A DNA stretch of 64,000 nt from Escherichia coli (GTDB lineage Bacteria > Pseudomonadota > Gammaproteobacteria > Enterobacterales > Enterobacteriaceae): assembly GCF_016026235.1 (NCBI RefSeq), contig NZ_CP065613.1; one strand, given 5' to 3'. The notes below the pieces were generated by a model. The model was not told where the DNA came from, did not search any database, and was given only the letters and a program-made list of their open reading frames with translations. This document shows positions 32,541 to 32,723 of the stretch, piece by piece (the first letter of the stretch is position 1; each line of letters starts with the position of its first letter). A program made the translations under genes and the position numbers.

Positions 32541-32723
32541 CGGATGCGGCGTGAAAACCTTATCCGCCCTACATGTGCAATCCCGTAGGCCGGATAAGAC
32601 GCGGCAAGCGTCGCATCCGGCAATTGCACCGCGCCACTGGCGGATGCGGCGTGAACGCCTTATCCGCCCTACATGTGCAATCCCGTAGGCCGGATAAGAC
32701 GCGGCAAGCGTCGCATCCGGCAT
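32541..32723. repeat. BIME: tandem direct repeat (2 units of about 83-99 bp), each unit holding an inverted pair of REP palindromic units
   Basis: Unit 1 from 32541 (gcggatgcggcgtgaaaaccttatccgccctacatgtgcaatcccgtaggccggataagacgcggcaagcgtcgcatccggca...) repeated from 32640 with 2-3 mismatches; ends at the eutG stop codon. Confidence 0.85.

Follow-up and report, generated by a model that had tools for sequence, protein, structure and literature searches.

Elements of the REP/BIME family are present in roughly 600 copies in E. coli. Two classes of BIME have been described. BIME-1 elements pair a z1 REP with a y REP, are present in single copy, and have a long L linker in which an IHF site is often found, and BIME-2 elements pair y and z2 REPs through a short linker and form multiple tandem copies, the number of which varies between strains (Ton-Hoang 2012, PMC3333891). 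The family has been associated with mRNA stabilization and with binding of IHF, PolI and gyrase (PMC3333891), and REP hairpins protect mRNA from exonucleases (PMC6061677). At the DNA level, gyrase cuts BIME-2 in vivo at its y REPs, and does so irrespective of transcription (Sutormin et al. 2019, PMC6379681). As summarized in PMC12306157, a REP positioned less than 16 nt from a stop codon lowers translation of the upstream ORF, an effect that Liang, Rudd & Deutscher (2015) are there said to attribute to ribosome stalling. A well-defined RNA is also linked to the family: naRNA4 corresponds to one Y-l-Z2 unit of REP325, a six-unit BIME-2 located between yjdM and yjdN in K-12 (Qian et al. 2015, PMC4550694).

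A tandem repeat between eutG and eutH

The window analyzed here, a 64,000-nt stretch of E. coli contig NZ_CP065613.1, contains two adjacent ethanolamine utilization genes, both on the minus strand. The first, eutG (32724..33911, minus strand), codes for the ethanolamine-utilization alcohol dehydrogenase and matches NCBIfam NF011998 (EutG) with a score of 886.7 bits. The match spans residues 10–404 of a 404-aa ORF at 32724–33938; since it begins at residue 10, the eutG start is most likely at 33911, and RefSeq eutG is 1188 nt in K-12 and other strains. Its UAA stop codon occupies 32726–32724 on the minus strand (TTA at 32724–32726 on the plus strand). The second gene, eutH (31281..32507, minus strand), codes for the ethanolamine permease or facilitator and matches NCBIfam NF011665 over its full length, 1–408, with 870.6 bits. 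The genes are separated by a 216-nt spacer (32508–32723) that contains one tandem array.

Tandem Repeats Finder places this array at 32540–32722, with a period of 100, 1.8 copies, 97% matches, no indels and a score of 352, and a second repeat search recovers two 86-nt copies, 32540–32625 and 32640–32725, that are 97% identical and lie 100 nt apart. The conserved cores are 83 nt in length (32540–32622 and 32640–32722) and differ only at two adjacent positions, AA at 32556–32557 versus CG at 32656–32657; a third mismatch emerges only when a copy is lengthened beyond the core. Each core is built from two imperfect palindromes in opposite orientation, which in the eutH-proximal core are 32540–32572, ending in CTAC, and 32585–32622, starting with GTAG. 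An earlier sequence-only reading of this DNA had proposed a tandem BIME of inverted REP pairs beside eutG, inside the eut operon, with a unit of 83–99 bp and 2–3 mismatches between copies, and the repeat searches bear out both the element and its dimensions. That reading had further let the array run up to the eutG stop codon. The array does adjoin the stop, but the coordinates were off by one base, and a single nucleotide lies between the end of the second core (32722) and the stop codon.

The repeat belongs to a dispersed family. The REP core pattern GCCGGATAAGNCG is found seven times in the window against 0.35 expected, which excludes chance, and Megablast locates similar sequence at 6 places in the median E. 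coli genome. Lone REP-like core matches are also present in the window at 49035–49047 and 43762–43774.

ORFs of 53–110 aa overlap the array, and the spurious peptide AGCDACRVLSGLRDCTCRADK is present twice in its translation, so the near-duplicate peptides noticed earlier in the six-frame translation are a real consequence of the repeat. That the repeat encodes small proteins is nonetheless close to inconceivable. The ORFs stem from GC-rich palindromes and appear on both strands, gain or loss of repeat units shifts their frame and length between strains, and the spacer contains no annotated CDS in the RefSeq genomes inspected.

Organization of the array

In mRNA sense the order of elements is the eutG UAA, a single A, a Z2 REP, a 12-nt linker, a Y REP, a 17-nt linker, a second Z2 REP, a second 12-nt linker, a second Y REP, a leader and the eutH AUG. 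The Z2 REPs are 38 nt in length and end in CCUAC, and the Y REPs are 33 nt and start with GUAG. All parts described below are given on the minus strand, with units numbered from the eutH side. The stop-adjacent Z2-type REP of unit 2 (32685..32722; mRNA sense UGCCGGAUGCGACGCUUGCCGCGUCUUAUCCGGCCUAC) is an inverted repeat that folds at −22.8 kcal/mol; the REP begins 1 nt past the eutG UAA, and its stem 2 nt past it. The 12-nt tail-to-tail linker that follows (32673..32684; plus strand ATGTGCAATCCC) is the same in both units. It leads into the Y-type REP of unit 2 (32640..32672; mRNA sense GUAGGGCGGAUAAGGCGUUCACGCCGCAUCCGC; −16.2 kcal/mol), which matches the Y half of naRNA4 and differs from the published REP consensus GCCGGATGCGGCGTGAACGCCTTATCCGGCCTAC, in the form given in PMC12306157, by one deletion and one substitution.

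The two units are connected by a 17-nt head-to-head linker (32623..32639; plus strand ATTGCACCGCGCCACTG), which carries a 4-nt insertion when aligned with the l-linker region of naRNA4. This linker exists only where there are at least two units and is missing from one-unit alleles. The Z2-type REP of unit 1 (32585..32622) is identical to 32685–32722, folds likewise at −22.8 kcal/mol, and matches the Z2 half of naRNA4. Beyond the 12-nt tail-to-tail linker of unit 1 (32573..32584), as read from the sequence, lies the Y-type REP nearest eutH (32540..32572), which carries the AA variant at 32556–32557. This variant removes two upper-stem pairs, and the unit 1 Y REP accordingly folds at −12.1 kcal/mol compared with −16.2 kcal/mol for that of unit 2. 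The remaining 32 nt of the spacer (32508..32539) form the eutH leader, which contains the ribosome-binding site GGGAG, lies outside the repeat, and is conserved in every E. coli allele examined.

The array as a BIME-2 element

The array has all of the sequence-level features of BIME-2 and not those of BIME-1. First, all four palindromes carry a REP foot tetranucleotide, CTAC at 32569–32572 and 32669–32672 and GTAG at 32585–32588 and 32685–32688, and each is a highly repeated, intergenic stem-loop palindrome within the 30–40-nt size range of REPs. Second, the y and z2 REPs are inverted relative to each other, alternate in orientation, and are joined by short linkers into extragenic, co-transcribed tandem units that vary in number among strains. 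Third, naRNA4 (RF02564) is the sole Rfam family above threshold in the array. The match (32588..32669) lies on the transcribed, minus strand, consists of the Y REP of unit 2, the linker and the Z2 REP of unit 1, and covers model positions 1–77 of 77, scoring 77.5 bits (E = 2e-14), above the gathering score of 59.5. It is thus highly probable (roughly 0.88) that the element is a canonical BIME-2 with two Y+Z2 units at a copy-number-variable locus, with the consequences expected of its family.

The array differs from the BIME-2 consensus at several points. The Z2 stem reads CCGGAT/ATCCGG rather than CCTGAT/ATCAGG, a compensatory change that falls at positions variable in the naRNA4 model, and it has one extra loop base. 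The Y REP is one C/G pair short, with GCGGAT in place of GCCGGAT, and the head-to-head linker measures 17 nt instead of 11 nt. These departures are locus-specific sequence variants and not a different architecture. The layout was also compared with that of REP325, extracted from MG1655 (5743–6399 of that locus sequence). Similar to the eutG–eutH array, REP325 is composed of Y-linker-Z2 units with a 100-nt period, lies directly 3′ of a gene and is transcribed from it. However, REP325 has six units, joined by linkers of 11 and 17 nt, whereas the eutG–eutH array has two, joined by linkers of 17 and 12 nt. The period is exactly 100 nt in both despite the unlike linkers and REPs that differ by 1–2 nt, which may be a coincidence or may reflect a length constraint.

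A second full-length naRNA4 match is present in the window at 60336–60412 on the plus strand (92.7 bits). It is likewise a BIME-2-type Y-l-Z2 unit, and its presence within the same 64 kb shows how common such elements are.

The likeness to BIME-1 goes no further than the inverted pairing of REPs, one of them a Y REP. BIME-1 elements (RIP, RIB elements) are single copy and contain a Z1 REP and, in their long L linker, an IHF site, and the eutG–eutH spacer has none of these. The IHF consensus WATCAANNNNTTR has no match on either strand between 32480 and 32760, the linkers are 12 and 17 nt, the second REP type is Z2, and the units are in tandem; an IHF-binding BIME-1 was therefore rejected. The suggestion in the sequence-only reading that the array could bind IHF falls with it, as IHF binding is a BIME-1 trait and the spacer contains Y and Z2 REPs with short linkers.

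RNA structure and predicted effects on eut expression

The spacer RNA is strongly structured. The whole spacer folds at −113 kcal/mol, with a z score of −4.9 relative to dinucleotide shuffles, and the four palindromes of 33 or 38 nt fold in mRNA sense at −12.1 to −22.8 kcal/mol. A scan for sigma-70-like promoters found none inside the array. The effects proposed below derive from the behavior of the REP/BIME family rather than from the eutG–eutH locus itself; a literature search for transcripts or gyrase sites involving REPs at eutG–eutH returned nothing specific to this locus.

The array would be co-transcribed with the eut mRNA and would fold into four stable hairpins. These hairpins may block 3′–5′ exonucleases, such that the eutS to eutG segment would outlast the eutH-distal part of the message following cleavage or premature termination. 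The REP stabilizers of operon interiors, exemplified by malE–malF (Newbury et al. 1987, as cited in PMC6061677), are intercistronic and consist of stable hairpins without a U-tract, as at eutG–eutH. Similarly, in the stop-proximal REPs of Liang et al. (2015), as summarized in PMC12306157, the first hairpin lies no more than 15 nt past the stop codon of the upstream gene; the stem at eutG, 2 nt past the UAA, is positioned within this limit and would be expected to lower EutG translation. Unlike in these two systems, the effects at eutG–eutH are predicted from sequence. Given the stable hairpins, differential stabilization of the eut mRNA, as put forward in the sequence-only reading, is a reasonable and plausible extrapolation from the REP family. 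On the DNA itself, gyrase would be expected to prefer the Y REPs of BIME-2 and is the only plausible partner, and IHF binding would be unexpected. Neither eutG nor eutH is named in the accessible portion of the gyrase Topo-Seq supplementary files (PMC6379681).

The array could in principle also act as an internal terminator or attenuator that uncouples eutS–G from eutH–R. The 216 nt that follow the eutG stop are untranslated and structured, and a connection between BIMEs and Rho-dependent attenuation has been reported (Espeli et al. 2001, as cited in PMC6061677). A scan for intrinsic terminators, defined by a GC-rich hairpin with a U-run, however found none within the array. Terminator-like sites were present only inside eutH, at 32472–32490, and because no REP hairpin precedes a U-run, the array was rejected as an intrinsic terminator, and attenuation would be possible only via Rho. 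The essential eutABC genes lie downstream and are expressed from the same upstream eut promoter, and alleles with five units would be expected to be strongly polar if the array attenuated transcription. An attenuator is thus an unlikely explanation of the array.

Still less likely is that the array serves as the source of a naRNA4-like RNA, in which case processing of the eut mRNA would free a Y-linker-Z2 fragment that, together with HU, bridges DNA cruciforms. This possibility draws on the full-length Rfam match, which exceeds the gathering score on the transcribed strand, and on the requirement of condensation for a two-hairpin RNA such as Y + Z2, most REPs being transcribed (Qian et al. 2015, PMC4550694). 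Only for REP325, however, have HU binding and nucleoid condensation been demonstrated (PMC4550694), and the Rfam model in effect recognizes any BIME-2 Y-l-Z2 unit, as it does elsewhere in the window. The complete Y-linker-Z2 junction is found only in alleles with at least two units, and the ~40% of sampled strains that have a single unit do not possess it. Furthermore, the eut operon is not expressed unless ethanolamine and B12 are present.

Copy number variation in E. coli

K-12 MG1655 has a spacer of identical length, 216 nt, with two units. Other alleles read directly contain one unit in 116 nt (L003), three units in 316 nt (L007), four units in 416 nt (L006), and five units in 515 nt (L009). 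A query consisting of the flanks alone, with spacer length read from the match spans, found both flanks in range in 5393 of 5426 complete E. coli genomes. Sixty of these, sampled at even steps down the ranking, include 25 genomes with one unit, 20 with two, 2 with three, 1 with four, and 4 with five, in addition to 3 with the O157 remnant, 4 with a 169-nt allele and 1 with another form. A second sample of 39 genomes is composed of 14 one-unit and 15 two-unit alleles, 6 with at least three units, 2 O157 remnants and 2 169-nt alleles. Across the full set, 4283 of the 5426 genomes (~79%; 4273 in a separate count) have two units or fewer, the remnant included. This count was obtained with a one-unit query at 80% coverage, which joins the pieces of two-unit alleles and thus means at most two units; the samples separate one from two and indicate that roughly half of these genomes have one unit and half have two. 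Subtraction of the 4283 genomes and of the 306 with the 169-nt allele from the 5393 with both flanks leaves about 800 (15%) with at least three units or another form.

Several alleles have lost or replaced the array. In O157:H7 the spacer contains a 99-nt remnant (L004, 809–907) in which the Y REP has substitutions and the stop-proximal Z2 REP is short by 17 nt. The eutG stop of this allele is not adjoined by an intact hairpin, and the remnant represents a natural control for the stop-proximal REP hypothesis. In 306 of the 5426 complete genomes, a 169-nt spacer with an unrelated repeat takes the place of the BIME-2. As seen in strain EBJ003 (L005, 809–977), this is a GC-rich palindromic repeat with CCCTCAC/GTGAGGG motifs that is present at several places per genome. 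No Rfam family was found in the 169-nt allele; its repeat may resemble the box C elements. E. coli isolate 127 (L008, 1409–1584) carries a deletion that extends from the tail-to-tail linker of unit 2 into the 3′ end of eutG. The rearrangement ends within the BIME repeat, and the eutG of this isolate is annotated as a pseudogene missing its C-terminus.

Comparison across genomes, as the sequence-only reading had recommended, shows that the duplication is neither universal nor unvarying, with one to five units, a remnant and a replacement all represented. The "duplication" is therefore one state of a copy-number-variable BIME-2 locus, and it is not a special event, as that reading had implied: tandem repeats define BIME-2 (PMC3333891), and K-12 has the same two units. 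Variation in copy number is what the literature describes as normal for BIME-2, and it does not count as evidence of regulation. Both the tandem structure and the variation between strains are already published properties of this class, and the finding is real but ordinary.

Recent change at the locus

Over 8 kb, the closest genome, FDAARGOS_943, differs by four substitutions and one 1-nt indel (99.9% identity), and it contains a single unit in which the Y REP has the AA variant. The same variant is present in the single unit of ZF8-1, likewise among the closest genomes, and the next four relatives after FDAARGOS_943 have one unit each. That near-identical genomes differ by one unit indicates a very recent gain or loss of a 100-nt unit. 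The two units in the window share 65 identical nt, and removal of a unit from the two-unit allele, through recombination inside these 65 bases, reproduces the FDAARGOS_943 allele exactly. In the opposite direction, one-unit alleles are without the 17-nt linker, so a simple duplication of such an allele cannot yield the two-unit form. A recent duplication peculiar to the source strain was considered and rejected, since K-12 and about one third of the sampled genomes have the same two units.

Slippage between the 100-nt direct repeats, or unequal recombination between them, probably accounts for the gain and loss of units. Cleavage and recombination by TnpA-REP, the REP-associated transposase, is an alternative route for copy change (PMC3333891) and might add to the turnover of units. 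That the window contains two units, rather than one or five, is probably without dedicated function.

The spacer in other genera

The eutH start was located, and the upstream spacer read, in one genome from each of 40 species (L015–L056). Several Citrobacter have an "empty" spacer of 27 nt that contains the ribosome-binding site only, and the spacers of Yokenella, Pluralibacter and Hafnia are 32–47 nt in length. A single REP is present in Salmonella enterica subsp. diarizonae and in C. sedlakii. Different single BIMEs (119–123 nt) are found in C. werkmanii, C. youngae, C. portucalensis, C. koseri, C. gillenii and Pseudocitrobacter, the Klebsiella spacers contain palindromic units of Klebsiella type (194–216 nt), and other Escherichia species contain E. 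coli-type units in numbers of 1, 3, about 4.6 and about 5.6. Varied occupants alongside empty spacers indicate that lineage-specific REPs have colonized the site repeatedly and independently, and that it is dispensable in some lineages. Natural alleles without an intact REP, namely the 169-nt allele, the O157 remnant and the empty 27-nt spacers of several Citrobacter, further imply that the hairpins are dispensable for eut function and that any effect they exert is modulatory at most.

These comparisons bear on whether the array has any effect at all. It is a serious possibility, though somewhat short of an even chance, that the array is neutral selfish repeat DNA that sits in a permissive spacer, has no measurable effect, and drifts in copy number. 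Such drift would account for units that range from 0 to at least 5, for the replacement and decay alleles, for near-identical strains that differ by one unit, for the Citrobacter spacers reduced to a ribosome-binding site, and for the one isolate in which a deletion from the array into eutG is tolerated. On the other hand, it is unlikely that four co-transcribed hairpins, with folding energies of −12 to −23 kcal/mol, would be inert at the RNA level given the published effects of REPs, and lineage-specific REPs fill the same spacer in Escherichia, Salmonella, Citrobacter and Klebsiella. This last pattern could reflect selection, or it could reflect only a preference of REPs for their target. 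A purely neutral element is compatible with all of the observations and differs from the BIME-2 with family-type consequences favored here only in the size of its effect.

At the other extreme, the number of units behind the eutG stop (none, a remnant, or 1 to at least 5) could act as a heritable, fast-mutating rheostat that sets, in different E. coli lineages, the level of EutG and the balance between upstream message (shell and early enzymes) and downstream message (EutH, lyase), with alleles of at least two units perhaps releasing a naRNA4-like RNA upon ethanolamine induction. We regard this as a long shot. If it were true, the repeated and independent occupation of the spacer by lineage-specific REPs in Escherichia, Salmonella, Citrobacter and Klebsiella would reflect selection for a structured element after eutG.

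Under the favored reading of a canonical BIME-2, the locus matters little beyond annotation. The array should be labeled as a BIME-2 with four REPs so that the spurious ORFs escape gene calls, and 100-nt indels at this position, being ordinary BIME copy number variation, should not be mistaken for assembly errors or regulatory innovations. The locus is also usable as a natural allelic series, consisting of no unit, a remnant, one to at least five units and another repeat, with which the effects claimed for REPs in the literature, on the decay of mRNA and on how well the upstream gene is translated, could be tested in an inducible operon.

One of the sequences compared, DXKH01000140.1 (L027), is labeled as a metagenome-assembled Citrobacter sp. 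The C-terminus of its EutG is 100% identical to that of E. coli and its spacer is an E. coli-type one-unit spacer; these features probably mark an E. coli contig that was binned wrongly. In the window, eutA (29880–31284) is apparently frameshifted and divided into ORFs at 29880–30821 and 30703–31284. The split results from an additional T at 30802 that is missing from FDAARGOS_943, a genome that is otherwise nearly identical and whose 1404-nt eutA is intact. It represents either a real pseudogene or a sequencing error.
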